Source of the DNA: Candidatus Poseidoniales archaeon
GTDB taxonomy: Archaea > Thermoplasmatota > Poseidoniia > MGIII > CG-Epi1
Reading direction: 5' to 3'
NCBI GenBank assembly: GCA_045567975.1
Contig: JBJLBY010000016.1
Location: forward strand, 1-33,650
Length of the DNA: 33,650 nt
Positions 5,126-22,868 of this stretch are shown piece by piece. The translations under genes and the position numbers were made by a program. How positions within the stretch are numbered: the stretch's first letter is position 1; the number at the start of each line of letters is the position of its first letter. The notes beneath the pieces are model-generated. The model searched no databases. It was given only the letters and a program-made list of their open reading frames with translations, and was not told where the DNA came from.

Positions 5126-5159
5126 AGTATCTGGTTTATTGTGTGGCAATAGTTAAAAA

Positions 5160-5351: not shown

Positions 5352-5357
5352 GATAAA

Positions 5358-5759: not shown

Positions 5760-6171
5760 CGAATTTCGCTCCTAAAACTTTTGATACTTCGCTTAGTGTA
5801 ATATATTTTGATGTATTTTTCATCTTTGCATGATCTATAGTTTGTATATCTTTTTCTTCAATTTCTCTTGGTTCACCTATATCTACGCGCAGTCTTTTGA
5901 AGGCTTCACGCCCTTTTGGCTTTTGGTATGGTATCATTCCTCTTACAGCTCTCTTAAGCATTAGGTGAGGCATCCTTGGATAATATGGGCCTTTACGTGG
6001 GTGATTTAGATTTCTTTTTTCGATATATTCACCGAATACCATTTCTTTAGTCCCAGATATAACTGCTCTCTCTGCATTTATTATGTGTATTTGTTCTCCG
6101 TTTAGTAGACTCTTAGCTACGGAGCTTGCCAATCTTCCCATTACACAATTCTTTGCATCAATGACTTTCAT
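5752..6171 (-). CDS. rpl13: 50S ribosomal protein L13 (uL13)
   Basis: [38 protein letters not shown] matches the uL13 N-terminal signature. Confidence 0.95.
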
Positions 6172-6542
6172 TAACCGATCACCATCACATCTTTACCCTT
6201 TGGATTTGATTTGATAAAGTCACTATAATGTAAGCATTTTCCTCCAGCCTTTTCTATTTTCTCTGTGGCTGATTTTGTGAAACTATATGCAGAAACTGTA
6301 ACTTTTTTGGTCAGGTTTCCACTCCCCATTAACTTCCCAGGAACTACAATTTTAGAGTTTTTCTGGCTATTGTATTCTAGTTTACTTATGTTGACAGTAG
6401 GCCAATTACGAGATGGTCCTTCAAGTCTCTTAGCGATGCTTCTCCAAATAGGTGCATCGTTATCACGAGAAGCCTTCTTTAGGCTCGTGATTGCTTGCAC
6501 TAATTCAGGGTTGCTTTTCCGGTTGATTTGTTTCAGAGACAT
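6171..6542 (-). CDS. rpl18e: 50S ribosomal protein L18e
   Basis: SNPELVQAITSLKKAS...APIWRSIAKRL...VNISKL...VVPGKLMGSG...KAGG matches the archaeal L18e pattern. It also holds the conserved position upstream of rpl13. Confidence 0.9.
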   Translation of the reverse strand: MSLKQINRKSNPELVQAITSLKKASRDNDAPIWRSIAKRLEGPSRNWPTVNISKLEYNSQKNSKIVVPGKLMGSGNLTKKVTVSAYSFTKSATEKIEKAGGKCLHYSDFIKSNPKGKDVMVIG

Positions 6543-6582
6543 CGCTATCTTCTTAAAGTAGGTTGGCGGCCAGACTGTGGCG

Positions 6583-6590
6583 TATTTAAA
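6583..6590 (-). promoter_or_regulatory. Candidate TATA box TTTAAATA for the rpl18e-rpl13-rps9-rpoN transcript
   Basis: A consensus archaeal TATA octamer on the minus strand, immediately after the purN stop and ~44 nt upstream of the rpl18e ATG. Confidence 0.4.
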
Positions 6591-6593
6591 GTA

Positions 6594-7199
6594 TTAGTCG
6601 GTTTGAATAGATACATTTCTACCGTCTATAATAAGTTTTTTTGAGCAAAAGAGTTCTAATGCTTTAGGCATTAATTCATGTTCTAGTGGCAATATTTTTT
6701 GTGAAAGAGTTTCTTCTGTTTCATTATTATCAACTTTCACAGAGGCTTGCATTATAATTGGCCCCGTATCAACACCTTCATCTACAAGATGAACCGTACA
6801 TCCGCTAATTTTTGAACCGTATTTTATCGTGTCTCTATGTGCGTGAGCTCCTGGGAAAGAGGGTAATAGTGAAGGGTGAATATTGATAATTTTATTTTTG
6901 TATGAATTAATAAATTGCGAAGTCAGAATTCGCATAAATCCAGCCAATACTATAACGTCTATTTTTTCAGTTTTAAGTACTTCTAAAGCTTTTTTTTCAA
7001 ACTCTTTTCTGCTGCAGTTTTTAGATTCTATTATGGTGTAATCAATTCCATGGTTAGTTGCTCTCTGAATAACATATGCGTCCTTTTTATCAGTAATGAG
7101 ATGTACAATCTCAGCATGAGGTGTTTCTCCTCTCTCTGATGAATCTATAATAGCTTGGAAATTACTTCCTCTTCCCGAAGCCATGACTGCAACTTTCAT
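6594..7199 (-). CDS. purN: Phosphoribosylglycinamide formyltransferase (PurN)
   Basis: VMASGRGSNFQAIID, VLAGFMRIL and NIHPSLLPSFPGAHAHRD are the formyltransferase catalytic motifs. Confidence 0.9.
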   Translation of the reverse strand: MKVAVMASGRGSNFQAIIDSSERGETPHAEIVHLITDKKDAYVIQRATNHGIDYTIIESKNCSRKEFEKKALEVLKTEKIDVIVLAGFMRILTSQFINSYKNKIINIHPSLLPSFPGAHAHRDTIKYGSKISGCTVHLVDEGVDTGPIIMQASVKVDNNETEETLSQKILPLEHELMPKALELFCSKKLIIDGRNVSIQTD

Positions 7200-7843
7200 A
7201 ATCTTTTCAACTTATTTTTTGGGGCATATTCAACTAATACTCCACTACCCATAATTTCCGCATTTTTAACTTCCAGTTTAAGGATATTGGTTGCATCTTT
7301 GCACCCATTTCCTCCGGCTATAGTAGGTGTTTCAGTTCCACCTATAATCATGTTTGAAGTAAAAATATAAAGTTTAGTAAATAATTTTTTTTCCAAAAAG
7401 GACCACATTACAGTTTCTCCACCTTCTACTAGTATTTTGTTTATTCCTATTGCTTTGAGTTTAGGTAATAATTCTAGCAGATCTATTTGTTTAAGTCCGC
7501 AGTTTATTATTTCAATGTTTGGATTTTGTTTTACAGTAGTATTTTCTCCTACAGCTACTATGGTTCTACTCTCACCATCAAGTACATTTGAGTTCTTTGG
7601 AATCCTAAAGTTTGTATCCAATATAATTCTAGTCGGTTTTATTCCATTACTGTTTCTCAGTGTAAGTTTGGGATTGTCTTCAATTACTGTGCCAATACCT
7701 ACTAAGATAGCATCGCATTCACTTCTAAGTTTGTGCACTCTTTCAAAATCTTCTTCATTTGATAATGTTATTCTTTTTCTATCAGGTAAGGCTATTTTTC
7801 CGTCTGCAGATGCTGCACAATTTAGTATAATTTCAGGAAACAC
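7196..7843 (-). CDS. 2,5-diamino-6-ribosylamino-4(3H)-pyrimidinone 5'-phosphate reductase (RibD C-terminal-domain type, archaeal riboflavin pathway)
   Basis: ILNCAASADGKIALPDRKRITLSNEEDFERVHKLRSECDAILVGIGTVIEDNPKLT matches the RibD_C/archaeal reductase N-terminal region. ATGA overlap with purN. Confidence 0.8.
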   Translation of the reverse strand: MFPEIILNCAASADGKIALPDRKRITLSNEEDFERVHKLRSECDAILVGIGTVIEDNPKLTLRNSNGIKPTRIILDTNFRIPKNSNVLDGESRTIVAVGENTTVKQNPNIEIINCGLKQIDLLELLPKLKAIGINKILVEGGETVMWSFLEKKLFTKLYIFTSNMIIGGTETPTIAGGNGCKDATNILKLEVKNAEIMGSGVLVEYAPKNKLKRL

Positions 7844-7900: not shown

Positions 7901-8731
7901 TCAATATTGTTCTTTGTTGTTTGGGAATTTCTTACTTTTAACATCGTTGACGTAAGCTTTCACAGCATTATCTATGTCTTTTGAAAGGTTTAGATATCTA
8001 CGTAAAAATCTAGGATTGAATTCATGTGTCATTCCCAACATGTCATGTAAAACTAATACTTGTCCATCAACATCTACTCCAGCTCCAATACCTATTACTG
8101 GAATTTTAACGGACTTACTAACTTTTTTGGCTAATTTTGCAGGTATTTTCTCTAGTACGATTGAGAAACAACCTGCCTTTTCTAATTCCTTTACATCATT
8201 TATCAATTTATTTGCTTCTTCATCCTCTTTAGCCCTGACAGTGTATGTTCCAAATTTGTAGATAGATTGAGGGGTAAGGCCAAGATGTCCCATAACTGGT
8301 ATACCTGCAGTCAGAATTCTTTCAATTGACTCCATAATCTCTGAACCTCCCTCTAATTTAACTGCATGAGCTCCAGATTCTTTCATAATTCTTATTGAAG
8401 ACTCTAGTGCTCTTTTTGAGTCACCCTGATAGGATCCAAAAGGTAGGTCAACAACTACTAAGGATCTTTTTACAGCCCTTACCACTGAGCTTGCGTGATA
8501 TATCATATTATCAAGAGTTATTGGTAGTGTAGTTTCATGACCCGCTATTACATTTGATGCAGAGTCTCCGACTAGTATAACGTCTATTCCAGCTTCATCA
8601 ACAATTCTGGCTAAGGTGTAATCATACGAAGTAAGCATTGATATTTTTTCTTTTTTTGCTTTCATTTCATGCAAAACATTTGTGGTTATTCTCTTATATT
8701 CTTTAATCATTTTGCTGCCTTTGTAGCACAT
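7901..8731 (-). CDS. panB: 3-methyl-2-oxobutanoate hydroxymethyltransferase (PanB)
   Basis: [36 protein letters not shown] and KLEGG motifs. An internal ATG at 8710 ([10 protein letters not shown]...) is an equally plausible start. Confidence 0.9.
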
Positions 8732-8768
8732 CTATTGGTAGGCCTATTTATTAAGCATTTTATCTTTT

Positions 8769-9182
8769 TTGAAGTTGTCACTAGCCCTAACTCTTTTAAT
8801 AGGGTTTTGCAACAGGGTAACTGTGCTTGGACATGAGTACGTTCCTATAGGGATATTTGCGCTTATTGCGCTGTCATTTCCTATACTGACATTTTTCATC
8901 GGAAGATTCTTCCGACCCAATAATGACAATGCTCTAAAAAATTCAACTTATGAGTGTGGAGAAATTCCAATGGGAGAGGCTCACATCCAGTTTCATTTTC
9001 AATATTATATGTTTGCAATCTTATTCGTAGTTTTTGATCTAGTTGTTGTCTTTTTAATTCTATGGGTTCAGGTCTATCTATCTTTGGCTGTGTCTGCAAA
9101 GGTAGTTATGCTATTATTTTTGCTTTTGACACTATTAGGTTTGTGGTATGCTTTTAGAAAAGAGGATGTGATATGGATATGA
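8769..9182 (+). CDS. nuoA: NADH-quinone oxidoreductase-like complex, subunit A
   Basis: YECGEIPMGEAHIQFHFQYYMFAILFVVFDLVVVFL is the NuoA/ND3 core. The ORF-track start is TTG; an in-frame GTG at 8823 would give a more typical 119-aa protein. Confidence 0.85.
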   Translation: MKLSLALTLLIGFCNRVTVLGHEYVPIGIFALIALSFPILTFFIGRFFRPNNDNALKNSTYECGEIPMGEAHIQFHFQYYMFAILFVVFDLVVVFLILWVQVYLSLAVSAKVVMLLFLLLTLLGLWYAFRKEDVIWI

Positions 9183-9820
9183 GCAGTAAAGGAATTAGGG
9201 GCAATCCGAAACTCAGACGGGGGGTAGGGTCCAAGACAACAGATTCAGACAAGATTATGGAAGATCCGCCAGCTGGTGATTGGCTTCTACTTCGTTCTGA
9301 CCAGTTTTTGAAATGGATTGATGATACTGTCTACAACATAGCTGAAGCTACTGGGGTAAGAGATGTGGTGAATAGAGTCACAAGACCTATTTTCAACTAT
9401 GCTCAAAGGTTCTCACCTCATCCGCTTCATTTTGGGATAATGTGTTGTGCGATAGAAATGGGTCAGGCCTCAGCGCCAGACCATGATATTGATAGACTAG
9501 GTTTAGTTTATAGGTCATCACCAAGACAATGTGATGTGTTGATTGTTAACGGACCAGTTTGTGAAAAATTAAGGCCTAAATTAAAAACATTATATGAGCA
9601 AATGCCAGAACCAAAGTGGGTCATTGCAATGGGAGAGTGTGCTATATCTGGTGGGCCATATTGGGATTCTTATTCCGTTGTTGCTGGTGCTGATACTTTT
9701 ATGCCTGTTGATGTCTATATTCCTGGCTGCCCAGTTAGACCTGAAGCTTTGATGCATGGTTTCTTAACATTACAGAAAAAGATTAGAGAAAAAGAACCTG
9801 GAATGTTTTTGAGGAGATAA
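9173..9820 (+). CDS. nuoB: Complex I subunit B (cluster N2 carrier) with an extended N-terminus
   Basis: [18 protein letters not shown] and IPGCPVRPE cysteine motifs. About 75 aa precede the SPHPLHFG region, compared with roughly 35-40 in typical NuoB. ATG 9179 (ATGA overlap with nuoA) is an alternative start. Confidence 0.9.
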
Positions 9821-9821
9821 A

Positions 9822-10301
9822 ATGGAAATAAAGGCCTTCATGAAGGAATTGTCGTCTGATAAAGGCGTTAGTGATATTTCTTTATTAAGGTCTAATGTAG
9901 TTAAGATAAATTTAGAAAGAGATAATTGTAAGGAATTTTTCACAAAAGTTAAAGATGGTTATGGGTTTGAGCACTGTTCTCTTATTAGTGCTATTGATAA
10001 TCAACCAGAGTTTGAACTAGTTTACCATTTTTCAGTTATTGATGGGTCTATATTTGTTGAGGATAATCCTGCAGCAGTTATGCTTGAAGTTCATATATTC
10101 CTTAAAAGGGATACTCCTACAGTTGATTCGATTTCAGATCTTTGGTTTGGGGCCAATTGGCATGAGAGAGAAGCATACGATTTGATGGGTATATACTTTA
10201 TAGGTCATCCAGATTTAAGAAGAGTTCTTCTTCCTGAAGGTTTTGCAGGCCATCCTCTTAGGAAAGATTATGTGTATGAAATACACGAGGAGGAGTGGTA
10301 A
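9822..10301 (+). CDS. nuoC: Complex I subunit C (30-kDa family)
   Basis: [29 protein letters not shown] motif. GAGGAG Shine-Dalgarno sequence upstream. Confidence 0.85.
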
Positions 10302-11395
10302 TGGCTGAGATGTGGATTAGTATGGGTCCGCAACACCCTATGACTCATGGTCTTTGGACTCTGAAGGTTAAAGTCGACGGCGAGACGATAACTGATGCAG
10401 ATCCTGAATTAGGTTATCTTCACCGTTCAGTTGAAAAGATGGGTGAACGTCGTAAGTACTTCATGAACACTACTTTGACAGATAGGTTGTGCTATGCTAG
10501 TTCTACAACTTGGACACATTGTTATGCACTTTCAGTTGAGGAGTTAATGGAAGTCGAAGTTCCTCAAAGGGCTAAATATATACGTACAATTATGCTGGAG
10601 TTGCAACGTTTAGCTTCACACTTGATGTGGGCTGGCGCTTACATGCCAGATTTAGGGCATATTACTGGGGCACTCTACTTCTGGAGAGATAGAGAATTAT
10701 TTCTAAATCTACTAGAGCTACCTAGTGGAAGCCGTTTACTTTACAATTACATTCGAATTGGTGGCGTTAAGAGAGATTTGCCTGACGGATTTATGGAGAA
10801 GACAGAGAGAGTTCTCAAATTATTTGAGCAAAGATTGGATGAATATGCAGATTTATTTGAAAATTCAAAGATTTTTAGGATGAGAACTGAGGACGTGGGT
10901 AACTTTTCAGCAGTTCAAGCAAAAAATTTAGGTATCACTGGACCCAATTTGAGAGGTTGTGGTACAAAGTTCGATTTTCGTGAGCACGATACATATGAAA
11001 TATATGAAGAGATTGATTGGGAAATTCAGACTAGGGAAGCTGGTCCTGGCTACGGAGATTGTTTCAGTAGATATATGGTTAGAATTGATGAAATGAGAGA
11101 GTCAGTTCGTATCATTCGAGAATGCTTTGCTAAAATGCCGGAAGGTCCTACTATGGCTTCTAGGGTTCCAGTTCGTGCTACTGGTGAGGCTTTTAGGCGT
11201 ACTGAAGATCCGAGAGGTGAGGCTTTGATGTACATTGTAGGAGATGGTAGTGATAGGCCATATCGTTGGAAAATAAAAAGTCCTATGTTCACTACAATCT
11301 CAGCTTGTCCACATTATTTGAAAGGGTACAAACTTGCAGATATTCCAGCTATAATGGGTAGCATAGATATTTGTATAGGAGAAACCGACAAATGA
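10295..11395 (+). CDS. nuoD: Complex I subunit D (49-kDa family)
   Basis: [28 protein letters not shown] and a C-terminal IGETDK. ATG at 10301 (TAATG overlap with nuoC) is the more likely start. Confidence 0.9.
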
Positions 11396-12624
11396 GTTTG
11401 TTCTCAGTTTGCAAGTCTATGGCAGAGTGGACTGCTAATTATATGCTAATTCCGGTTTTTGAGTTTCAGAGGAATCTGTTCCCACCATTCAGTCATCCCG
11501 CAGGTATGGTGGCTGACTGGTTAAGTACAGATGGAGGTCTTAACACACTAGCTTGGGTATTTGCAGTAAATATCGCATTTGCGGTTGGTATGACTAATCT
11601 GATTATTGTCATCCATTTAGAAAGGAAAATTGCAGCTAGGATACAAGATCGTAGAGGGCCTATGCTCTCTTTCAGATCATTTAGGGAACTAGGGGAAGAT
11701 TTAGCAGGTAATGCACCAACTTGGAGATTTAAAGAAAATTATGCTGGCATTGGTATTTTACAGAATATGGCCGATGGAATTAAAGCGATTACTAAGGAAT
11801 TGATTATACCTGCTAAAGCAGATAAATTTCTATTTACTATGGGTCCTATAATTTTTATTTCTTCATCTGTATTTTTACTAGCGCTTTTCCCTCTTTCAGA
11901 TAGGTTTGCAGCTTCATCTGCACCAGCAGGTTTAATGGTTATTATGGCTGCTTTCTCTATTGCACCAATTGGAGTTCTAACATCTGGTTGGGCTTCAAAT
12001 AATAAATATTCCATGATTGGTGGAATGAGATCTGCAGCTCAATTGATGTCCTATGAAATACCCTTGCTTCTAAGTATGGCTGGTGTTTTTCTCTTAGCTG
12101 GTTCTTTTGACCCCGTAGATATCGTTGAGCAACAAAGAGAATCAACATGGCTTTTTGGGTTGCCAATGTGGAATTTCATTCCTCAATTTATTGGATTTGT
12201 GGTCTTCATGATATGTATACTAGCTGAAGTAGAGAGAGTTCCTTTTGATTTGCCAGAGGCTGAAGCTGAGCTTGTTGAGGGTTGGACTACAGAATATAGT
12301 GGTATCCGTTATATGTTGTTTTTAGCAGCAGAATACATTCGGGGTTTTGCAGGAGCTGCAGTAGCTACAATATTGTTTTTAGGTGGCTGGGCTGGGCCTT
12401 GGCCAGTACCGCCAGAGATTTGGTTCTTGTTGAAAGTTTACTTGATTTTAATATTCTGGATTTTTATTAGATGGACAGTTCCACGTATAAGAACTGATCA
12501 AATTCTGGAGTTAGGGTGGAAAAAACTTCTGCCTTTATCTTTAATAAATATTCTAATAGTGATTCTTATGGTAGAGATTTATCCTTATTTCAGCGAAGTT
12601 GTTCAACTTCCGGAGGTATTTTAG
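11392..12624 (+). CDS. nuoH: Complex I subunit H (ND1 family) with an N-terminal extension and a ~30-aa insertion in the first cytoplasmic loop
   Basis: ERKIAARIQDRRGP ... LQNMADGIKAITKE and EVERVPFDLPEAEAELVEGWTTEYSG. I chose the ATG at 11392, which overlaps the nuoD stop as ATGA. The ORF track offers TTG at 11371. Confidence 0.9.
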   Translation: MSLFSVCKSMAEWTANYMLIPVFEFQRNLFPPFSHPAGMVADWLSTDGGLNTLAWVFAVNIAFAVGMTNLIIVIHLERKIAARIQDRRGPMLSFRSFRELGEDLAGNAPTWRFKENYAGIGILQNMADGIKAITKELIIPAKADKFLFTMGPIIFISSSVFLLALFPLSDRFAASSAPAGLMVIMAAFSIAPIGVLTSGWASNNKYSMIGGMRSAAQLMSYEIPLLLSMAGVFLLAGSFDPVDIVEQQRESTWLFGLPMWNFIPQFIGFVVFMICILAEVERVPFDLPEAEAELVEGWTTEYSGIRYMLFLAAEYIRGFAGAAVATILFLGGWAGPWPVPPEIWFLLKVYLILIFWIFIRWTVPRIRTDQILELGWKKLLPLSLINILIVILMVEIYPYFSEVVQLPEVF

Positions 12625-13401
12625 ATGAGTAGTGACAGAGACATTGGAATAATGGATATTCTTGTTAATCCTATGAAGGTTACTTTGAAGCAGTTTTTCA
12701 AGTCAACTTTTGGTAAGCCAACAACTGTGATGTACCCTCTTGAAAAGAGAGATCCTCCACCTACCTACAGAGGGATGAATGCAGTTATTTGGGATCTTTG
12801 CATTGGTTGTGGTATTTGTGGTGAAGTTTGTCCTAACAAATGTTTGAAAATGAAACCAACAGATTTGTCTGAAGAAGAAAAAGATAGGGCATGGTATGGT
12901 TCTCATGTGGCTAAAAGAAAGCATAAGGCTGAGAGGCCAGCAATTAACTTTGGTCACTGCATGTTTTGTGGTTTCTGTGAAGATTATTGTCCAACTGGTG
13001 CTATGACTATGACTGATTTTTATGAGCTTGCAGATACTACAAGAGAGGGTCTAATTTATCCTGCACGTTCTATGAAAGTTGATCTAGAAGAGTTACCACA
13101 ATTACCTTTAACCAATTATATGATGGAATCTCCGGTTTTGAATTCAGATACTTGCATAGGATGTAGCAAATGTGTTGATAATTGTCCAACTAATTGTATA
13201 ATTATGGATGAAGGCCCTCAGAATAAAGAATTGAAGAGTGGTAAAGTGAGAAATGTTGAAAACCCTTATTTTGATTATACTATTTGTATTGGTTGTTCAA
13301 CTTGTGTAAAAGTTTGCCCAGCTTCTTGCTTGCACATGGAGCCTATAAGCAATTCTGGTTCTAGTGGTCTTAAGGCCAAGGTATCTGAGACGGAGGCATA
13401 G
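12625..13401 (+). CDS. nuoI: Complex I subunit I fused to an additional C-terminal 2x[4Fe-4S] ferredoxin domain
   Basis: Four CxxCxxCxxxCP motifs start at Cys59, Cys112, Cys177 and Cys221. The first pair has the NuoI spacing. 258 aa, compared with roughly 150-180 for a usual NuoI. Confidence 0.9.
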   Translation: MSSDRDIGIMDILVNPMKVTLKQFFKSTFGKPTTVMYPLEKRDPPPTYRGMNAVIWDLCIGCGICGEVCPNKCLKMKPTDLSEEEKDRAWYGSHVAKRKHKAERPAINFGHCMFCGFCEDYCPTGAMTMTDFYELADTTREGLIYPARSMKVDLEELPQLPLTNYMMESPVLNSDTCIGCSKCVDNCPTNCIIMDEGPQNKELKSGKVRNVENPYFDYTICIGCSTCVKVCPASCLHMEPISNSGSSGLKAKVSETEA

Positions 13402-13404
13402 TCT

Positions 13405-13668
13405 TTGGATTTAGCAGTTGTAGTTTTCTGGGGCCTTGGCTCTTTGATTTTGGCGTCAGCTTGGGCTGTCGTAAATGGTAAAGATATTGTGCATTCAGTC
13501 GTATGGCTTTCAACTGTTTTTCTTTTGACCGCAGGTCTTTTTATTATTGCGGATGCTGAATTTCTAGCAGTTATTCAAGTATTGGTATATGTAGGTGCTA
13601 TCTCTGTGGTCATTATTTTTGGTATTATGCTTACAAAGAGGACTCTGAAAGGAGGAGAAAATGTCTGA
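13405..13668 (+). CDS. nuoJ1: Complex I subunit J, N-terminal half (TM1-3)
   Basis: AEFLAVIQVLVYVGAISVVIIFGIMLTK is the conserved NuoJ TM3 region. TTG start. Three hydrophobic helices. Confidence 0.75.
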   Translation: MDLAVVVFWGLGSLILASAWAVVNGKDIVHSVVWLSTVFLLTAGLFIIADAEFLAVIQVLVYVGAISVVIIFGIMLTKRTLKGGENV

Positions 13669-14473
13669 TAGAACAGTTATTTGGTTTAGAGATGTTTTTG
13701 TCATAGTTCTGGTAATTTACGTTGTTTCCTCGGTTGCTATGGCACCATGGGCTAATTTGAAACCAGATATGTCATATTCAGACTCTTGTCAAACTGGATG
13801 TCCGCCAGTCATGATTTTCCCAGAAAATGGTTATTATCATTACAAGGATGAACTAACTTTTGATTGGAATCCAATATCTATTGATTATTTGGTTGTTATA
13901 GAAGATGAAAACTCTGATATTATTTTGAGCGAGAATGTCACAGACATGACCACTTTCACAACTTCAAAAGTTGTAGCTGGAAATTATACCTCATCCGTTT
14001 TCTTCAAAGGAATTTCTGGAGCTTTTGATTCGGATGATCATCCTTTAGTTTCTTCCACAGAACATAAGTTAGAGTCTTCATCGAAAATAACTCTAATCTG
14101 GGCAGATACTGAAGTTACTTACAATATTCAGATTAAGTTGGTTGAAGATCCAGATATTCTCTCTGAATATCATCCAGTCGTGCATCAAATATCGGGTATT
14201 GAATCTACAAGTTACGAATATTCCGATTTTGATCCAGGTCATACTTACTTCTGGTCTGTGAGTGGTTCGGCCAACTTTACAGATGATATTGGTAATCGAC
14301 TTGGATTTGAATCTGAGATGTCCACAGACTCGGAACTCAATATAGATACTACAAAGTTTTTAGCTTTTGAATTATTCAATGATTGGGATTTACCGTTTAT
14401 TTTGTTAGGTGTCTTAATGGTCATTGCTTTACAGGCTGGTGTATTTTTAGCTAGGGAGGAAAAAGATGATTGA
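13661..14473 (+). CDS. nuoJ2: Complex I subunit J, C-terminal half (TM4-5) carrying a ~200-aa insertion between the two helices
   Basis: The C-terminus FLAFELFNDWDLPFILLGVLMVIALQAGVFLAREE matches the NuoJ C-terminal helix. N-terminal TM helix VFVIVLVIYVVSSVAMAPW. A strong GGAGGAG sits 5 nt upstream of an ATG that overlaps the nuoJ1 stop. Confidence 0.7.
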   Translation: MSDRTVIWFRDVFVIVLVIYVVSSVAMAPWANLKPDMSYSDSCQTGCPPVMIFPENGYYHYKDELTFDWNPISIDYLVVIEDENSDIILSENVTDMTTFTTSKVVAGNYTSSVFFKGISGAFDSDDHPLVSSTEHKLESSSKITLIWADTEVTYNIQIKLVEDPDILSEYHPVVHQISGIESTSYEYSDFDPGHTYFWSVSGSANFTDDIGNRLGFESEMSTDSELNIDTTKFLAFELFNDWDLPFILLGVLMVIALQAGVFLAREEKDD

Positions 14474-14768
14474 TCCCTTCCACTTCATAGTATTTTCATC
14501 ACTATTATTTATGATTGGAGCTTATGGCGTTATAAGAAATAAGAATTCAATAGTGGTTTTGATGTCTGTTGAGATAATGCTTACTGCTGCGAACATTAAC
14601 TTTGTTGCATTTTCTACATATTATAATGATTTAACTGGGCAAATCGTAGCACTCTTTGTCACAACAATAGCTGCAGCTGAAGTTGCTATTGGTTTAGCTA
14701 TTCTTTTAAGTCTTTTTAAGCAAAGAGATACAATTGAGTTAGATTTACTTAATAGGTTGAGGTGGTAG
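14466..14768 (+). CDS. nuoK: Complex I subunit K
   Basis: 100 aa with three TM helices. VEIMLTAANINFVAF and AAAEVAIGLAILL motifs. Confidence 0.9.
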   Translation: MIDPFHFIVFSSLLFMIGAYGVIRNKNSIVVLMSVEIMLTAANINFVAFSTYYNDLTGQIVALFVTTIAAAEVAIGLAILLSLFKQRDTIELDLLNRLRW

Positions 14769-14769
14769 C

Positions 14770-16944
14770 TTGGGTAGTCAAGAGCGTAATTCCAACATTT
14801 TTCTTAATAAAGTAATTATTTCTGCACTTTTAGCAATTGCTTTGTTGGCATTTTTGGTTATGCCAGGATCAAAAACACCAGTTCATTTCTCTTGGCTTGT
14901 CCCTGTCTTCCCTTTAATTTCTTTTGGATTAATACTAATATTTGGTATGCAAGATTCAGAGAGAGGTGGTTCTATTGCCTTATTAGGTGCTAGTTTTTCT
15001 TCAGTATTTTCATTATCTATAGCTTATGATGTTTTTATCAATAATGCAGTTCATGGTTCCTTCATAGAATCCACAAGAGTCTGGTTTAGTGGTTCAACCT
15101 ATTCTTTTGAGTTTGGAACTTATATCGATTCCTTAGCAGCCTTATTGCTGTTAGTAGTCGGTCTTGTATCTTACTTAATCGTAGTATTTTCGATTAGTTA
15201 TATGGATGATCAAGGAGATAGGCGTATTCGTTATTTTGCTGAAATTTCACTTTTCATTACAGCAATGTATGGTTTAACTGTAGCAAATTCGTTTTTGTTG
15301 ATGTTTATTTTCTGGGAGATAATGGGTGTTTGTTCTTATCTTTTAATTGGTTTCTGGTATGAGAAGCCTTCAGCATCATCTGCTGCAAAGAAGGCATTCA
15401 TAGTCACCAGAGTTGGTGATGTTTTCCTTCTTTTGGGTTTAGTTATACTGTATAATACATTTGGTACGCTACGTTACTCGGAACTTTTTGCAGACCCTCA
15501 AATTATAATGAACAATCTTGAGGAAGTAAAATGGGCAACTCTCTGTCTGTTTGGAGGTTCAGTTGGCAAGTCTGCTCAATTCCCATTACACGTATGGCTT
15601 CCGGATGCTATGGAAGGTCCTACAACAGTTTCAGCTCTAATACACGCAGCTACAATGGTGAAGGCTGGAGTTTTTTTGGTAGCAAGAGCTTTCCCATTGA
15701 TAGTTCATAGTCCAGATACAGCAATATACATAGCTGTAACAGGAGGTGTAACTGCACTCATAGCCGCGAGTATGGCCATGGTTATGTACGACATCAAGAA
15801 AGTCCTTGCGTATTCTACTATTTCACAATTAGGTTACATGTTTCTTGCATTAGGTACTGGAGCATGGGCTGTGTGGCATGCAGCTGAAGAAGGATTAGAG
15901 ATTCATTCACAAGGGTATATGGCAGGTTTGTTCCATTTGATGAATCATGCTTTTTTTAAGGCACTACTATTTTTGGGGTCTGGTGCAGTTATTCACTCAG
16001 TTCACACACAAGATATGCGTGAAATGGGTGGTCTTAGACAAACAATGCCTATTACCTCCACCACTATGGGTCTTGGAGTTTTATCTATAGCAGGAGTACC
16101 ATTCTTCTCAGGTTTCTGGTCTAAGGATGAAATATTGGAGGCTGTGCACTATAATGGTCATAGTGAAGGTATTTTTGGTGCATTATGGTGGATGGCATTG
16201 TTAACTGCAGGTATGACTGCTTTTTACATGACACGTCTTTGGATGATGACTTTCAGTGGTCCTTTGAAACGGACTATAGAAGAAATGGTTCCTGCAAAAG
16301 ATCATGACTCTTCAGGGAATTGGGTTTTGAAAAAGAGGAAATTAGCGACCCATAGTCATGAATCGCCTCTCATAATGACATTTCCTTTGATGATTCTAGC
16401 TTTTTTGGCAGTTTTCTCAGGTTTCTTCTTGTTTTTAGGCGAAGGCTTTGGAGGAAAAGTTTACTATGGCTCTCATCATTCCTCGGAGGGTAATATTCAA
16501 TGGGGAATTATCGATCATATTTTATCTTCTAATCTAACTTATTTGTCTGTCACAGTTGGTCTTACTGGAGTCACATTGGGTTACCTATTCTATAAGAGAG
16601 GCCCAGATGGTAATACAGCATTTTCGACTGATTTTGTCAAAAATAATTTTGTTCTAAGCTCGCTTCATACTTTCCTTTTAAACAGACTATATATGGCTAA
16701 ATTGTTTGATTGGATTGGGATGAGAACATGGGATACGTTCGCTTCAATTTGTGATTGGTTTGATAGGAACATTATTGATGGTATTGTCAATTTTACTGCA
16801 TTCAGTGCTCAGGAATTGGGTCGAATATTTAGGAAAACCACTTCAGGTTTTACAGGTCATTATGCATCATTAAGTATAGGTGGTCTTGGTTTCCTAGTAA
16901 TTATTACTAGAATTGTTATGCCTTTAATGGGGTGGTCACTTTGA
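14770..16944 (+). CDS. nuoL: Complex I subunit L (antiporter-like, with long C-terminal region)
   Basis: FWEIMGVCSYLLIGFWY and WLPDAMEGPTTVSALIHAATMVKAGVFL. 724 aa. TTG start preceded by GAGGTGG. Confidence 0.9.
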   Translation: MGSQERNSNIFLNKVIISALLAIALLAFLVMPGSKTPVHFSWLVPVFPLISFGLILIFGMQDSERGGSIALLGASFSSVFSLSIAYDVFINNAVHGSFIESTRVWFSGSTYSFEFGTYIDSLAALLLLVVGLVSYLIVVFSISYMDDQGDRRIRYFAEISLFITAMYGLTVANSFLLMFIFWEIMGVCSYLLIGFWYEKPSASSAAKKAFIVTRVGDVFLLLGLVILYNTFGTLRYSELFADPQIIMNNLEEVKWATLCLFGGSVGKSAQFPLHVWLPDAMEGPTTVSALIHAATMVKAGVFLVARAFPLIVHSPDTAIYIAVTGGVTALIAASMAMVMYDIKKVLAYSTISQLGYMFLALGTGAWAVWHAAEEGLEIHSQGYMAGLFHLMNHAFFKALLFLGSGAVIHSVHTQDMREMGGLRQTMPITSTTMGLGVLSIAGVPFFSGFWSKDEILEAVHYNGHSEGIFGALWWMALLTAGMTAFYMTRLWMMTFSGPLKRTIEEMVPAKDHDSSGNWVLKKRKLATHSHESPLIMTFPLMILAFLAVFSGFFLFLGEGFGGKVYYGSHHSSEGNIQWGIIDHILSSNLTYLSVTVGLTGVTLGYLFYKRGPDGNTAFSTDFVKNNFVLSSLHTFLLNRLYMAKLFDWIGMRTWDTFASICDWFDRNIIDGIVNFTAFSAQELGRIFRKTTSGFTGHYASLSIGGLGFLVIITRIVMPLMGWSL

Positions 16945-18848
16945 AGATTAAATTATTTTTTGCTTTACTATTTATTTCATTAATATTTAACCCAACTGAG
17001 GCTATAGCTGAAGAGCATACTGTTTACGTTGGCACTGATGACAATCCCTTTATTTTTAGTTCAGATAGCATTCGTATAGCGCCCGGAGATACAGTATTAT
17101 TTGTTTGGACTGCCGGTCAACCTCACAATGTAGTTCAGGTTTCTGATGCATCATCTATGGCTTATGTTGAGAATGGCGATGTAGTTATTCCATTCCGTTC
17201 AGGTGAACCAGTTGACGGTGTCACTTGGTTGTTGGATTCAAATTATACCCAAGAAGAAACTACACTCTATTACATCTGTGAACCTCATGTTGGAATGCAA
17301 ATGAGAGGTCAAATTATTATTGAAAGCCGACCTGAAATGACATTAGATATAGGCAATTTCCCTTGGCTCTCGTATCTTCTTATTTTCCCATTGATAGGGG
17401 CTGTTTGGACGTTTGCTTTCAGAGATAGTCCAAGTGCACCAAGATTAATAGCATTAGTGACGACTCTGTTTACTCTCGGGATTTCCATATTAGTATTTAT
17501 CAAGCAAGCAGATTTATTTGGTGACGGGAGCGGCCCAGGTTCAGGTTTCGTCTTGGTTGAGGAATATGTGTGGGCACCTAATTTAGGTATTTCTCTTCTT
17601 CTTGGTGTTGATGGTTTAAGTTCGCCAATGGTTTTACTTACTGGAATAATAGTGCCTTTGACAGTTTTATTTTCCTGGCATGAAAAAGAAAAACCAGCAT
17701 TATTCTTTTCACTTTTATTAATAATGCAAACAGCACTCTATGGTGTTTTTATTACTCTTGATTATTTTGTTTTTTATATTTTCTGGGAAGTTGTTTTGAT
17801 CCCTATGTTCTTTTTGATTGCAATATGGGGTGGGGACAACAGAAAATATGCTTCGGTTAAATTTTTCATTTATACTTTTACAGCATCAGTAATAATGCTT
17901 GTAGGTTTCATGGCACTCTACTTTGAGACTGGAGCTAATTCGTTCTCAATGATCGAAATTGCTAAGCAGAATACAGAATTTTCTAGAGACTTCCAAATTT
18001 GGGTTTTTGCAGCTTTGTTTATTGGTTTTGCAGTTAAAATACCGTCAGTACCTTGGCATACATGGCTACCTGATGCTCACGTTCAGGCTCCAACTGCAGG
18101 TTCGATTCTTTTGGCTGGTGTGATGCTTAAAATGGGGCTTTATGGACTTATGCGAGCTGCCTTGCCAGTATTGCCTTTGGGTGCCGAATACTTCATTCCG
18201 GTAATGGTTGCTTTAGCTATAATTTCAATTCTTTATGGTGCTGCATTGAGTTTGGGTCAGACAGATATTAAGAAATTGGTAGCTTATTCTAGTGTTTCAC
18301 ATATGGGAGTAGCCCTTTTGGGTGTTGCTACAATGACTGAATTAGGTTTTGCAGGAGCTGTATTCATGATGTTTGCCCACGGCTTACTTAGTCCAGCTAT
18401 GTTTATGGTTGCAGGTGTTCTGTTACACCAATTAGGAACTCGAGATATACCAAGGTTGGGGGGTCTTGCTCAAAGGCAGCCAACAACAACTGGTCTTTTT
18501 GTTGTAATTTTCCTAGGTAGTCTAGGTGTTCCAGGTATGGCTGTATTCGTATCTGAATTGTCAGTTTTCATAGCGTTTTTTGAATCTCATGGTTATCTCT
18601 TACTTCTACCTATATTTGGAATGGTACTTACTGCAGGATATCATCTCTGGGCTCTTCAGAGAGCTATATTTGGAATTGAAAGCGACAAAATAGATATTGA
18701 AAAGGTGCATGAGGCGCCATGGTATGAGATGTATCCAATGTTTATTCTAATAGTAATTGCAGTGTTCTTTGGCATTTTCCCACATTATTTAATGGACACA
18801 ATATCGGCATCATCTTATGACATTCTGGACTTCATGGGGGTTCTTTAG
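16932..18848 (+). CDS. nuoM: Fusion protein: signal peptide + type-1 copper cupredoxin domain + complex I subunit M (antiporter-like)
   Basis: Residues 1-135 contain the signal-like KIKLFFALLFISLIFNPTEAIA, QPHNVV, and YYICEPHVGMQMRGQIIIE (Cys-x2-His-x2-Met). Residues ~137-638 form a NuoM core with FWEVVLIPMFF, WLPDAHVQAPTAGSILLAGVMLKMGLYG. Single uninterrupted frame. Alternative TTG start at 16941. Confidence 0.9.
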   Translation: MVTLKIKLFFALLFISLIFNPTEAIAEEHTVYVGTDDNPFIFSSDSIRIAPGDTVLFVWTAGQPHNVVQVSDASSMAYVENGDVVIPFRSGEPVDGVTWLLDSNYTQEETTLYYICEPHVGMQMRGQIIIESRPEMTLDIGNFPWLSYLLIFPLIGAVWTFAFRDSPSAPRLIALVTTLFTLGISILVFIKQADLFGDGSGPGSGFVLVEEYVWAPNLGISLLLGVDGLSSPMVLLTGIIVPLTVLFSWHEKEKPALFFSLLLIMQTALYGVFITLDYFVFYIFWEVVLIPMFFLIAIWGGDNRKYASVKFFIYTFTASVIMLVGFMALYFETGANSFSMIEIAKQNTEFSRDFQIWVFAALFIGFAVKIPSVPWHTWLPDAHVQAPTAGSILLAGVMLKMGLYGLMRAALPVLPLGAEYFIPVMVALAIISILYGAALSLGQTDIKKLVAYSSVSHMGVALLGVATMTELGFAGAVFMMFAHGLLSPAMFMVAGVLLHQLGTRDIPRLGGLAQRQPTTTGLFVVIFLGSLGVPGMAVFVSELSVFIAFFESHGYLLLLPIFGMVLTAGYHLWALQRAIFGIESDKIDIEKVHEAPWYEMYPMFILIVIAVFFGIFPHYLMDTISASSYDILDFMGVL

Positions 18849-20341
18849 TGGACGCTACTCTCCTGTTTTTGCCAGAGCTGTTACTGATTGCAAGTATCAT
18901 TGCTATTCCAGCATTATACATTGCAACAGAGAATAATAAGTCATTTTCCATATGTGCGAATTTATCACTTTTTATATCGCTAATTGTACTAGTAACATTC
19001 TGGTTTTATCCTGAGAACTTATCTTTGGATAAAGGCAGTGATTCTTACTCTATTTATGATCATTTCAAGGTGGATGATTTTTCTCAGATATTTAAGATTA
19101 TTTTTGTTATGACTGCACTGGCAGTTTCATTGATAAGTTCTTCTTACCTAAGGGATGACGAGCCTCACCAAGCTGAATATTATCTTCTAATACTTTCAAG
19201 TACTCTAGGTATGTTATTAGTAGCATCAGCTACAGATTTTTTGACCTTGTTTTTAGGTATTGAAATTTCAGCTTTCAGTAGTTATGCACTTGTGGCTTTT
19301 AGAAAAACTGATGATCAATCCACTGAAGCAGGAGCAAAGTATTTGCTTATTGGTGCCTTCTCATCAGCCCTTACACTGTATGGAGTTTCATTGATTTATG
19401 CTTTAACTGGAACCACAAACTTTGAAGGAGTTAATGCCTTTCTTATTGGTTTGAATAATGGAGTTATTTCAGGTAATTTCAATGAAATTATATTTATTTC
19501 AAGTTTATTCATTCTTGCAGGTCTTGGATTTAAGGTTGCAATCGTACCTTTCCATGCGTGGGCGCCTGATGTCTATCAAGGTGCACCTACTCCAGTCACA
19601 GCTTTATTGGCAGCAGCAAGCAAAGCTATGGGTTTTGTTGCTTTATTTAGAGTATTTGCATTTACTCTTGAATCATTCTCTGATGAATGGATGTTAGTTA
19701 TAGGGATAATAGCCTTAGCCTCTATGACATTAGGTAATTTAATTGCAATTTCTCAGGAAGATATAGGTCGGATGTTGGCTTATTCATCTATAGCACAGGC
19801 AGGTTACGTTTTAGTGGCTTTTACGGCCTTATCAAACGATGCTATTTCTGGTGGTATCGCACATATCTTAGTTCATGCATTCATGAAAGGAGGTGCCTTT
19901 GTTGTTGTAGCTGCAGTGGGTGCGGCAGGATTAGGTTACAGTATAGATTCCTACAAAGGTTTAGCAAAACGGTCGCAATTACTTGCCCTTTCAATGACAA
20001 TCTGCTTGCTATCATTAGTAGGTATACCTCCTTTTGCAGGTTTCATCAGTAAGTTCCTTTTGTTTTATGGTGTTTTACAAGTAGGAATTTCCGATGGTAG
20101 CACATGGATAATTGCCTTAGTTGTTGCTGGTGTGCTTAACTCAGCTTTATCTCTTTACTATTACTTGAGAGTAATGAGGTATATGTATATCTATGATCCT
20201 ACAGATGACGATGTTAAGTTCTCAGATTCCATGCGTTATATTGCATTGTTTGCAGCTCTGTCTCTGTTCGTTATAATTCCTATTTTCTGGGAATCCTTGT
20301 ATAGTCTTTGTAAGGATGCAGCAATGGCATTGCTTTCATGA
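18848..20341 (+). CDS. nuoN: Complex I subunit N (antiporter-like)
   Basis: PFHAWAPDVYQGAPTPVTALLAAASKAMGF. 497 aa. The GTG start overlaps the nuoM TAG by 1 nt. Confidence 0.9.
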   Translation: MDATLLFLPELLLIASIIAIPALYIATENNKSFSICANLSLFISLIVLVTFWFYPENLSLDKGSDSYSIYDHFKVDDFSQIFKIIFVMTALAVSLISSSYLRDDEPHQAEYYLLILSSTLGMLLVASATDFLTLFLGIEISAFSSYALVAFRKTDDQSTEAGAKYLLIGAFSSALTLYGVSLIYALTGTTNFEGVNAFLIGLNNGVISGNFNEIIFISSLFILAGLGFKVAIVPFHAWAPDVYQGAPTPVTALLAAASKAMGFVALFRVFAFTLESFSDEWMLVIGIIALASMTLGNLIAISQEDIGRMLAYSSIAQAGYVLVAFTALSNDAISGGIAHILVHAFMKGGAFVVVAAVGAAGLGYSIDSYKGLAKRSQLLALSMTICLLSLVGIPPFAGFISKFLLFYGVLQVGISDGSTWIIALVVAGVLNSALSLYYYLRVMRYMYIYDPTDDDVKFSDSMRYIALFAALSLFVIIPIFWESLYSLCKDAAMALLS

Positions 20342-20598
20342 TAGATAAAGAGAGTAAAAAATATTTGCAATTTGAAAAAATGTGGGATGGTATTACACCC
20401 AAAGGAACAAATGTCAGTAAAAAGAATTCATTTCGTTCTCTCATGAAAAACAACTGTCAGCAAGAAGGTTTTGAATTCAGCAAAATAAATTCTTATTTAG
20501 TTTATTCTGGAGAATATAAGAATCTGGATGAAGATACAATAATTAAAAACGACATAAAATTAACAAGGCCACCTAGGCGTCATTTACGCAAGTTTTAA
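20338..20598 (+). CDS. Hypothetical 86-aa hydrophilic basic protein, translationally coupled to nuoN
   Basis: ATGA overlap with the nuoN stop. No TM segment and no recognised family. C-terminus TRPPRRHLRKF. Confidence 0.4.
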   Translation: MIDKESKKYLQFEKMWDGITPKGTNVSKKNSFRSLMKNNCQQEGFEFSKINSYLVYSGEYKNLDEDTIIKNDIKLTRPPRRHLRKF

Positions 20599-21572
20599 TT
20601 TTTATCATTGCCAAGTAATTCGTTTGTGAAAGCAATAGGTACTTGTTCGAGTAACTTTTTTTCAGGAGTATCTGGAACGTCCTTTAGGAATTTTCTTGCC
20701 ATTTCTTGCCAAGGTTCAATTAAGCTTTCAAAAATTTCTTGAGCGTGACTTATTTCTACATTTTCAATTAAAGCTTCACTATTACCATTATATACAAAAT
20801 CAGCGACCATTTCTCTGTATTGAGGATACTTGCCAAGTTTAGTCACAGGTAATGTCGGTATCTTCAGTGCTAAATCACCAACTGGTGTTTTTGTTATTAA
20901 TGAGTTTAGTAAGTCTAAGAAATCATCTGTAATTTGATATAATATACCTACACTTTCACCATATTTGTACATATTTGTTGATAAATCGGTTCTTGGAGAT
21001 ACTAGAGCGCCTAGTTCTGCAGCTGTACTGAAAAGTGCACCTGTTTTTCTCTTTATACGATGAAGATATACAGATTCACTGTAATTTTCTTTGTCAGTAA
21101 AATCTGCTATTGCACCCTCAGACAAATTTCTAACGCATTTTGCCAGAGATTTCCCAGTTTCAAGAGAAATAGCTCCATGAAGTGAACCAGTTGCAGCCAT
21201 CAAATCACCAACCAACACTGAAGTTCTTGGACCCAGTTCATTCCAGAGAGATGGTGCAGCTCGCCTAAATTTGTCTCCATCGATCCAATCATCATGTATT
21301 AGAGCACCACAGTGGACAAGTTCAAGGGCCATGCCACATTCAAAAGCTAGATGTGTGTCTCCTCCCAAGGCATCTGAAACTAACCTACACAGTACAGGTC
21401 TAAGTTTTTTACCGCCAGAAATTCCCTTTCGCATTAGATTACCAATTTCAGTAGGTTCTTTTGCAATCTCTCTTTCTATGTGATCAATGAATTCGCTTTT
21501 CACCAGTTTATAGTAATCACTAAGTTCATCTGAAGTAGCTAAATCAATTCTAGTTTTAATGTTATTATTCAT
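20595..21572 (-). CDS. trans-Polyprenyl diphosphate synthase (GGPP/longer-chain type)
   Basis: First Asp-rich motif LIHDDWIDGD and second motif ITDDFLD. Its ATG abuts the MenA stop (TAAATG). Confidence 0.85.
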   Translation of the reverse strand: MNNNIKTRIDLATSDELSDYYKLVKSEFIDHIEREIAKEPTEIGNLMRKGISGGKKLRPVLCRLVSDALGGDTHLAFECGMALELVHCGALIHDDWIDGDKFRRAAPSLWNELGPRTSVLVGDLMAATGSLHGAISLETGKSLAKCVRNLSEGAIADFTDKENYSESVYLHRIKRKTGALFSTAAELGALVSPRTDLSTNMYKYGESVGILYQITDDFLDLLNSLITKTPVGDLALKIPTLPVTKLGKYPQYREMVADFVYNGNSEALIENVEISHAQEIFESLIEPWQEMARKFLKDVPDTPEKKLLEQVPIAFTNELLGNDKN

Positions 21573-22868
21573 TTAAGTGTACTCCAATCCTAAAATCATC
21601 AGTATACCAGTTATTGCATGTATACCAATAGTGCCCCAATTAGCTATGGCTAATTCTCTTGTGTTGTAGCTTGTTATTACTTTGTAAGAGCAATATATCG
21701 CTATTGGTAGCGCAAGTAATGATAGCAAGGCACCTTCTGGAAGGATATTGTAAATGTGTAGTAGGTAAATTGAACTAAAAGCAGTAATCATGAGTACAAC
21801 ATATCCCCAGCTGGCCTTTTCCAATCCAAGAACTACAACTAGATGGTTTTTTCCAGCTATTTCATCAGAGTCTCGATCTGGGAATTGATTTATCCAAAGA
21901 ATGGCAGTTGTTAGTATACCTAGTGGTATTCCAAACATAAATGCATCCCAATTATGAATTCCACTCATTGCAAATATAGCCCCCATAGTCATTAATGGAC
22001 CATAGTTCAGTCCAATTAGTATTTCTCCGAGCCCTTTTCTAGCTACCAGCCTGAGCGGATATCCAGTGTAGAAGTATGCTGAAAACGCTCCAGCTAATCC
22101 ATAGTATAATAGTTCAAATTTATTGTCACCAAGAGTAGACATAACGCCAATTCCCATCAAACCTGCAAGACCCAAGAAAACAGTTGCAAGGTTGAAAAGT
22201 TGTTTTTCTGTTATCAATCCCAATTCGATTGCTCTACTTCCACCAGATAATTGAAGAAAATAGTCATTATTGATTTGATCTGTTCCACTAGTCCAATCAA
22301 AATAATCATTGTAAGTATTAGCAGCTAGGTGGAGAAAAGATCCCCCTAATATTACATATATAAATGTCATCCACTCCATACTAATCATATCTTGGTTTAT
22401 TGCCCAAACCACACTTGCTATGATTGGTATCCATGTAGCGCTCAGAAATGGTAATCTTGTGATTGCTACTATAGAAATAAATCTAGTTAGTAGTGAAGTA
22501 TGAGGCATTGCGTCCTCAGGTGAGACGTCTACGAGTTCTTTAGTTCTTCCACAATAACCTACATGTTTTCCTTTCTTGATTGTGGCAGTTACTCTGAATT
22601 CAGCTGCAAATTTAGTTCCATCCTTTCTGATAAAGGTGGTTTTAGTACTATAGCCATTTTCATTTTCTCTAGCTTTTTTGAGCCAGTTAGCTACATGTCC
22701 TAGAACGACCAAACCTGGTGAGAAAAGAGATACTCTTTTTTTATCAACAATTTCTTCAGCAGAGTATCCGAATAGTTTTTCAGCGTTTTTATTGAACGTT
22801 TCGATTCTTCCTTCAGTATCGCATGTTATTACACTTACTATTCGGTCTGCTTCAGCTTGGTCAGACAT
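21573..22868 (-). CDS. menA: PAS domain fused to a 1,4-dihydroxy-2-naphthoate polyprenyltransferase (MenA, UbiA superfamily)
   Basis: Residues ~8-112 carry the PAS pattern ITCDTEGRIETFNKNAEKLFGYSAEEIVDKK...FIRKDGTKFAAEF. The membrane part carries NTYNDYFDWTSGTD and INQFPDRDSDEIAGKNHLVV, which match the two MenA Asp-rich motifs. Confidence 0.8.
   Translation of the reverse strand: MSDQAEADRIVSVITCDTEGRIETFNKNAEKLFGYSAEEIVDKKRVSLFSPGLVVLGHVANWLKKARENENGYSTKTTFIRKDGTKFAAEFRVTATIKKGKHVGYCGRTKELVDVSPEDAMPHTSLLTRFISIVAITRLPFLSATWIPIIASVVWAINQDMISMEWMTFIYVILGGSFLHLAANTYNDYFDWTSGTDQINNDYFLQLSGGSRAIELGLITEKQLFNLATVFLGLAGLMGIGVMSTLGDNKFELLYYGLAGAFSAYFYTGYPLRLVARKGLGEILIGLNYGPLMTMGAIFAMSGIHNWDAFMFGIPLGILTTAILWINQFPDRDSDEIAGKNHLVVVLGLEKASWGYVVLMITAFSSIYLLHIYNILPEGALLSLLALPIAIYCSYKVITSYNTRELAIANWGTIGIHAITGILMILGLEYT

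Follow-up and report, generated by a model that had tools for sequence, protein, structure and literature searches.

A plastocyanin-type copper domain fused to the complex I subunit NuoM in low-GC Marine Group III archaea, a candidate tethered electron carrier

The window analysed here is a stretch of 33,650 nucleotides (nt) from a Candidatus Poseidoniales archaeon (assembly GCA_045567975.1, contig JBJLBY010000016.1, positions 1 to 33,650 of the forward strand). Between nuoL and nuoN it carries a single open reading frame (ORF) of 638 codons (16932..18848, + strand), in which a predicted signal peptide, a plastocyanin-type cupredoxin domain, a linker of about 11 residues and a complete NuoM, an antiporter-like subunit of complex I, follow one another. 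Residues are counted throughout from the GTG at 16932. An earlier note on this DNA had described one uninterrupted frame holding a true in-frame fusion of a cupredoxin to NuoM, and we recover the same frame in 27 other genomes, conserved and under purifying selection. The fusion is a real, old, conserved and lineage-wide trait of low-GC Marine Group III (MGIII). We propose, with moderate confidence, that the fused domain would be a tethered carrier feeding an aa3-type oxidase, with NuoM as its anchor and with complex I and the oxidase as neighbours. The identity of the domain is solid, whereas its function is deduced from its relatives and from geometry.

The extent of the fusion comes from a genome scan with one genome per species, in which loci had to match across the junction. 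Twenty-seven loci do so at 52–75% identity, three of them from single-cell genomes (L020, L023 and L024), and 26 hold a complete ORF of 620–636 amino acids (aa) with the same layout, the other one (L023) being cut by the end of the stretch analysed. All of the fusion loci have a G+C content of 35–42%, and those of their records that give a group name have Marine Group III, Poseidoniia or Poseidoniales, with a single Thalassarchaeaceae (L011). Among proteins, PF00127 and PF00361 occur together in 78 of the best 120 clusters, at 60–95% identity, and a 422-kb metagenome contig repeats the gene order of the window over at least 20 kb. A missed stop codon, a frameshift or a chimeric assembly could in principle have joined a separate cupredoxin gene to nuoM, but the same frame recurs in these 27 independent genomes from different studies, single cells included, and in the 78 clusters, and around the junction the ratio of nonsynonymous to synonymous substitution rates (dN/dS) stays well under 1. 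We consider an artefact ruled out by this recurrence, its residual probability being negligible.

The nearest unfused NuoM proteins (P0089–P0091) are 60% identical and begin directly at helix 1; they lie on contigs with 62–63% G+C, where nuoL is directly followed by nuoM. Two further candidates for an unfused MGIII NuoM, P0081 and P0082, were discarded because their gene calls are truncated, beginning within the linker or the copper domain itself. When the domain was compared with 1.84 billion representative proteins, only the MGIII clade scored below 1e-30, and no second independent cupredoxin–NuoM family appeared. The architecture is present unremarked in public protein sets, where full-length entries, if named at all, bear no other name than ‘NADH-quinone oxidoreductase subunit M’. 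Some other entries are truncated at internal methionines; one of them, P0081, with its start in the linker, is a ‘hypothetical protein’ in GenBank. Both kinds of entry hide the copper domain from annotation. A full-text literature search, which did not cover the principal paper on MGIII genomes (ISME J 2017), returned no description of the fusion.

The copper domain occupies residues 27–131 (17010..17324, + strand). The Pfam family PF00127 (Copper-bind) matches residues 31–131 in the full protein with an E-value of 6.7e-12 (46.1 bits), and matches the isolated N-terminus with 2.1e-13 (50.9 bits), the curated cut-off being 21.2 bits. The four predicted ligands, His65 (codon 17124–17126), Cys116 (17277–17279), His119 (17286–17288) and Met124 (17301–17303), are invariant in 27/27 genomes, and equally so in an alignment of 50 sequences, metagenome proteins among them. 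The earlier note had placed the first three at these same codons, together with Met122 as the axial ligand of an amicyanin-type site (C-x2-H-x2-M). This last assignment is ruled out, because position 122 is variable (of the 27 sequences, 13 have Met there, 13 have Leu and one has Ala) and because amicyanins match at only E 0.2–0.9. On sequence grounds the spacing is that of plastocyanins, C-x2-H-x4-M with Met124 as the predicted axial ligand, since Met124 is invariant, position 122 is not, and plastocyanins are the best solved relatives. The best sequence match in the PDB is indeed plastocyanin 1pla (E 2.8e-9), and in the alignment to plastocyanins PHNVV falls over PHNIV and CEPHVGMQMRG over CEPHAGAGMKG. 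The ligands of the fused domain then match His37, Cys84, His87 and Met92 of plastocyanin.

Structure prediction points the same way. The AlphaFold2 model of residues 26–140 has a mean predicted local distance difference test (pLDDT) of 89, and Foldseek matches this domain model in the PDB to plastocyanins at each of the first 12 ranks, with E from 6e-9 to 8e-8 and template modelling scores of 0.62–0.76 (0.65–0.79 for the top matches), and to pseudoazurins from rank 13. We are confident that the modelled fold is the eight-stranded Greek-key β-sandwich of plastocyanins. The domain is strongly acidic (16 Asp and Glu compared with three Lys and Arg). Its mean pairwise identity is 65%, compared with 86% for the NuoM part, and its median dN/dS is 0.074, compared with 0.026 for NuoM (27 unsaturated pairs), values indicative of strong purifying selection on the copper domain. 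The invariant ligands, the low dN/dS and the predicted plastocyanin fold together argue that the domain is functional, and it presumably binds copper.

The protein almost certainly starts at the fourth codon of the frame, TTG 16941, and would thus probably be 635 aa long. Codon 4 is ATG, GTG or TTG in 28/28 loci (the window and the 27 homologous loci), it overlaps the nuoL stop as NTGA in 28/28, and the string GGGGTGGTC is conserved just 5′ of it. It is the conservation of these three features that designates TTG 16941, a start previously held to be plausible, as the real one. A database protein that is 95% identical (P0009) is called from this same position. The Shine–Dalgarno-like GGGGTGG (16929..16935, + strand) lies within the C-terminal codons of nuoL (M-G-W-S), 5 nt before the TTG; atgggGTGGTC is kept in 28/28 loci, and GGGGTGG would be the ribosome-binding site.

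From this probable start to position 17009 (16941..17009, + strand) the sequence encodes a predicted Sec-type signal peptide, with a K-rich n-region, an LFFALLFISLIF core and an A-I-A motif, and cleavage is predicted after residue 26. Residues 1–26 are only 37% identical across the homologues, yet all of them retain the layout, in which an n-region with Lys or Arg leads into a hydrophobic core and a small-x-small motif precedes E-[EDN]-H, in accord with the signal peptide that had been suspected at residues 1–25. The N-terminal peptide expected on predicted cleavage is EEHTVYVGTDDNPFIFSSDSIR. Halocyanin-type carriers have a twin-arginine signal and a lipobox cysteine. Residues 1–26 contain neither an arginine pair nor a cysteine in any of the 27 homologues, which rules out a lipoprotein carrier of that type.

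Directly after the predicted A-x-A cleavage site stands Glu27-Glu28-His29 (17010..17018), of which Glu27 and His29 are invariant in 27 genomes. The mature terminus would then read X-X-His, the amino-terminal copper and nickel (ATCUN) pattern for copper(II), which may reflect a second metal site or mere chance. This invariant Glu27-x-His29 could also speak for a domain that is no carrier at all and instead captures or delivers copper for CuA assembly, senses redox state and modulates complex I, or caps the complex structurally together with the outer insert of about 190 residues in NuoJ of the same operon (see below). Other cupredoxin proteins near cox genes could, on this account, be the real carriers. 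Against it stands the complete and invariant His-Cys-His-Met site with plastocyanin loop spacing, a signature of outer-sphere electron transfer rather than of copper trafficking; moreover, the cox locus already encodes SCO1-type chaperones. We regard a non-carrier role as quite unlikely.

NuoM proper covers residues 143–638 (17358..18848, + strand) with 14 transmembrane helices. PF00361 (Proton_antipo_M) matches residues 277–567 (E 3.2e-73), and the NCBIfam model TIGR01972 (NDH_I_M) spans residues 146–632 with 512 bits, for a cut-off of 263.8 bits. This part aligns with residues 4–491 of Escherichia coli NuoM (E 1.5e-91) and superposes in Foldseek on solved NuoM, ND4 and NdhD with template modelling scores of 0.90–0.94. 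Glu286, Lys369, Lys400 and Glu542 fill the columns of E. coli Glu144, Lys234, Lys265 and Glu407 and are invariant in 62 sequences; the proton-pumping residues are therefore intact, and the description of an ordinary NuoM from about residue 137 holds.

Solved complex I structures place the N-terminus of NuoM outside. The loop charges of the fused protein fit this topology: the loop between helices 1 and 2 has Arg164 and Arg171 and that between helices 3 and 4 has two lysines, while the loop between helices 2 and 3, with its β-hairpin, has no Lys or Arg and five Asp or Glu. An outside N-terminus, with the copper domain on the outer face of the membrane, as expected earlier of an exported cupredoxin, is thus consistent with the signal peptide, with the start of the NuoM part at E. 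coli residue 4 and with the loop charges.

Because the alignment with E. coli NuoM sets in at residue 4 of the latter, only about 11 residues join the copper domain to the start of helix 1. This linker (residues 132–142, SRPEMTLDIGN; 17325..17357, + strand) has a pLDDT below 50 at residues 133–141; it is 11–15 residues long in all homologues, and its Pro134 is invariant. In most homologues a methionine stands 9–10 residues before the conserved FPWLSYLL; it is probably a relic of the ancestral nuoM start codon, and the GenBank gene call P0081 begins at it. Such a methionine might still yield an unfused NuoM, or proteolysis of the linker might release the cupredoxin, so that mature complex I would be ordinary. 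However, the window protein has a leucine at the position of this methionine (TLDIG), the linker shows no conserved stop, frameshift or separate ribosome-binding site, and its length and Pro134 are conserved. Release would furthermore yield a soluble carrier, yet the free relatives of the domain are anchored. Two separate products therefore seem very unlikely to us.

In the search of the domain against representative proteins, the next relatives beyond the MGIII clade reach up to 53% identity and have many architectures. The closest non-NuoM homologues that could be placed in genomes are of two kinds, 44–54% identical to the fused domain. The first is the C-terminal domain of a two-cupredoxin protein of about 550 aa with a PGF-CTERM-like tail, found in high-GC Poseidoniia (45–54% identical). 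The second comprises small proteins of Kariarchaeota and Heimdallarchaeota (L028 and L034), made of a signal peptide, a cupredoxin and one C-terminal helix (44–52% identical). The fused domain and these free relatives have in common the motif LYY[IV]CEPH....M[RK]G. The two-cupredoxin gene of L027 is the immediate neighbour of ctaA, coxB and coxA and is divergently transcribed (confirmed by Pfam); coxA and coxB motifs lie near it at L029 and L032, and a coxA motif at L030. High-GC Poseidoniia thus have at least three loci (L027, L029 and L032) where an anchored cupredoxin adjoins ctaA-coxB-coxA. We also observed that CoxA (794 aa, 3739–6123, − strand) and CoxB (502 aa, 6006–7514, − strand) of L027 bear N-terminal extensions of about 275 and 300 residues, respectively, with no Pfam match.

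The free anchored cupredoxins (L027–L034) and the window protein share the domain subfamily, the export and the C-terminal membrane attachment. They differ in the anchor: the free proteins use one helix or a PGF-CTERM-like tail, the window protein the 14-helix NuoM. The fusion therefore looks like a NuoM that has replaced the single anchor helix of a free cupredoxin. On this reading, a cupredoxin would have been inserted between nuoL and nuoM, and NuoM would have taken over the role of the C-terminal anchor helix or PGF-CTERM-like tail. A different exported module is found at the same place in P0087 (L039, 1153–3174; GCA_964586125.1, 65.5% G+C), whose NuoM is 68% identical to that of the window. 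In place of the cupredoxin, a ‘choice-of-anchor V’ domain (NCBIfam NF041895, E 3e-22; motif GCNCHG) follows the signal peptide at its N-terminus; neither Pfam nor the PDB returned a sequence match for this domain. The N-terminus of NuoM can therefore accept exported modules.

This raises the question of whether NuoM is only an anchor of convenience, in which case the domain would be a working carrier and electrons would pass when complex I collides laterally with the donor and the oxidase, with no defined supercomplex and no meaning for complex I. The interchangeable anchors of the free relatives (a C-terminal helix or a PGF-CTERM-like tail) favour this possibility, as does the seemingly permissive attachment point in the P0087 lineage. 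However, so large a complex diffuses slowly and would shuttle electrons poorly, a linker of 11 residues can hardly reach far, and a 1:1 stoichiometry with complex I has been kept clade-wide under strong purifying selection. We hold an anchor of convenience to be unlikely, although it is the main alternative.

Is there an oxidase for such a carrier in MGIII? Metagenome contigs were scanned for a low-GC version of the WYFGHPEVY motif, and about 30 low-GC loci were found, with a coxA about 60–65% identical over its full length to that of L027. A CoxA query from a low-GC locus led to a protein on JAKURQ010000035.1, which carries ctaA-ctaB-coxB-coxA-coxC-coxD. This contig shares its whole-genome shotgun prefix with a fusion locus, L019 (JAKURQ010000016.1, isolate ALOHA_A2.5_59, ‘MGIII-7’), and the two thus come from the same metagenome-assembled genome. 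The related low-GC cox loci contain an SCO1-family gene, and their coxB has the CuA motif C-x-E-x-C-G-x2-H-x2-M, from which it follows that the oxidase should take electrons from a one-electron donor on the outer face. The MGIII coxB encodes an ordinary subunit of 244–249 aa with no extra domain. Judged by its genes, one MGIII genome with the fusion therefore encodes a CuA-containing aa3-type oxidase. In addition, MGIII are predicted to be haem auxotrophs (bioRxiv 10.1101/2021.01.11.426183), which fits a reliance on copper rather than cytochrome c carriers.

Putting these elements together, we propose the following mechanism for the tethered carrier. The N-terminal 131 residues would form an exported, copper-binding electron-transfer domain of the plastocyanin type, held at the outer face of the membrane by helix 1 of NuoM. 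As a high-potential one-electron carrier, it would deliver electrons to CuA of the aa3-type haem–copper oxidase. With a linker of about 11 residues, the copper centre could move only a few nanometres. Given this short linker and a fixed attachment point, the oxidase and the quinol-oxidizing enzyme that reduces the copper would have to adjoin complex I, presumably beside the middle of its membrane arm, and the result would be a respirasome-like assembly with a built-in carrier. Of the two meanings entertained in the earlier note, the tethered carrier nucleating a supercomplex is thus the one favoured by the cox-linked free relatives, the CuA oxidase and the short linker, while we infer from them the supercomplex, the direction in which electrons would flow and the partners that would exchange them. 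The other meaning, an additional redox site of complex I, finds no support, as NuoM has no cofactor that could bridge the copper to the quinone site.

Several observations weigh against this proposal. The co-occurrence of fusion and oxidase comes from one metagenome-assembled genome, a bin that could be mixed, and further look-ups (P0315 and P0369) gave no second genome with both. The 422-kb MGIII contig, for its part, is not among the best 120 matches of the CoxA protein search. No candidate electron donor to the copper domain emerged from the loci scanned, which were not selected for one; likewise, the absence of a Rieske motif from about 170 loci says little, as all but about 41 nuo- or cupredoxin-centred ones were chosen for coxA. 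Other candidate carriers are also at hand. Near an MGIII-type cox operon, L137 encodes two large surface proteins, one of 648 aa that combines two fasciclin domains with a cupredoxin at the C-terminus and a PGF-CTERM tail (8550–10496) and, in the same cox neighbourhood, one of 1205 aa ending in a cupredoxin and an anchor (10604–14221). These cupredoxins have full type-1 copper loops and are 33–39% identical to the fused domain, which is therefore not the sole candidate carrier. Furthermore, the low confidence of the linker leaves the position of the copper domain relative to NuoM undefined in the model, and the known tethered carriers are attached to their own redox partner, not to complex I.

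A stronger version of the proposal, which we put forward tentatively and consider doubtful, is that MGIII have an obligate respirasome with complex I as its structural hub. The plastocyanin domain on NuoM would then sit at the interface between the oxidase and its quinol-oxidizing donor and serve as their dedicated wire, and the outer insert of NuoJ would perhaps be part of the same interface. If true, this would be the first high-potential carrier to form a covalent part of complex I.

The genes around the fusion complete this description. The nuoABCDHIJKLMN operon comprises 11 genes (8769..20341), with the fused nuoM as its tenth cistron and, according to Pfam searches on each ORF, no nuoEFG. 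The first genes, nuoA, B, C, D, H, I, a split J and K (8769..14768, + strand), were identified in this way and occur in the same order in L040. They are followed by nuoL (14770..16944, + strand; 724 aa; Proton_antipo_N and Proton_antipo_M), whose TGA stop (16942–16944) overlaps the probable nuoM start, and, after the fusion, by nuoN (18848..20341, + strand; 497 aa; Proton_antipo_M), the last gene of the operon; the synteny is identical in L040 and L041. An 86-aa ORF (20338..20598, + strand) overlaps the nuoN stop and is conserved in L040 (13377–13637); it has no family match and may encode an extra small subunit.

Two core subunits have unusual forms. NuoI (12625..13401, + strand; 258 aa) combines its two-cluster core (residues ∼24–147) with a PorD-like 2×[4Fe–4S] domain (residues 166–239) that, in an operon having no nuoEFG, may be an electron-input module; in the high-GC relative L037 (4070–6250), NuoI has 726 aa and is fused to a Pyr_redox_2 flavoprotein. 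NuoJ is split in the window into pieces of 87 aa (13405..13668, + strand) and 270 aa (13661..14473, + strand). The second piece consists of a helix, an acidic insert of about 190 residues with faint fn3- and Ig-like matches, and the C-terminal NuoJ helix. This insert is probably extracytoplasmic, a second decoration of the outer face of this complex I; the arrangement is conserved in L040 and L041, and a larger form (386 aa) occurs in L037.

Directly 3′ of the nuo operon, a polyprenyl synthase gene (20595..21572, − strand) adjoins a gene for a PAS domain fused to a MenA-like 1,4-dihydroxy-2-naphthoate prenyltransferase (21573..22868, − strand), an arrangement conserved in L040. This pair suggests menaquinone as the quinone and a sensor-controlled quinone synthesis.

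Whether respiratory supercomplexes serve a function has long been argued, and the case is clearest where a covalently integrated carrier forces the complexes into contact. The fusion gives a concrete and genetically fixed prediction about membrane organization, in a lineage of globally distributed, uncultured marine archaea predicted to be short of haem. Seen from complex I, the window protein is like the canonical NuoM, ND4 and NdhD in its 14 helices, in its key Glu and Lys residues and in the position of its gene between nuoL and nuoN; none of the 50 best-matching solved chains aligns beyond the core of about 500 residues.

Seen from the carrier, a close parallel is in Actinobacteria, where the di-haem cytochrome cc domain of QcrC in complex III makes the III2IV2 bcc–aa3 supercomplex obligatory (PMC8361435). 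Common to both would be a carrier that forms a covalent part of a membrane complex in place of a freely diffusing one, so that electron flow to the oxidase would need physical association. Yet in Actinobacteria a c-type cytochrome is joined to its own donor, complex III, while the MGIII carrier would be a type-1 copper domain on complex I, with which high-potential carriers do not exchange electrons; the domain is fused to NuoM and not, as a carrier joined to its own redox partner would be, to complex III or IV. Cytochrome cy of Rhodobacter is membrane-anchored and can integrate into III–IV supercomplexes (PMC8361435). As in the window protein, this carrier is confined to the membrane surface, although it is a haem protein with a long flexible linker and an anchor of its own. 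The caa3-type oxidases, in which the carrier is fused to subunit II, likewise confine it by fusion and likewise use haem.

Membrane-bound blue-copper proteins that replace cytochrome c are known in archaea, namely the sulfocyanin SoxE of SoxM in Sulfolobus acidocaldarius and the halocyanin of Natronomonas, which work between a Rieske/cytochrome b module and a haem–copper oxidase. Unlike the fused domain, they are separate polypeptides outside complex I and bring an anchor of their own, either an N-terminal helix or a Tat signal together with a lipid. The MGIII fusion would thus extend a known principle, that of built-in or anchored respiratory carriers, with an attachment to an antiporter-like subunit of complex I that is not among the known cases; a type-1 copper carrier at this place would bring the tethered-carrier principle to complex I for the first time.

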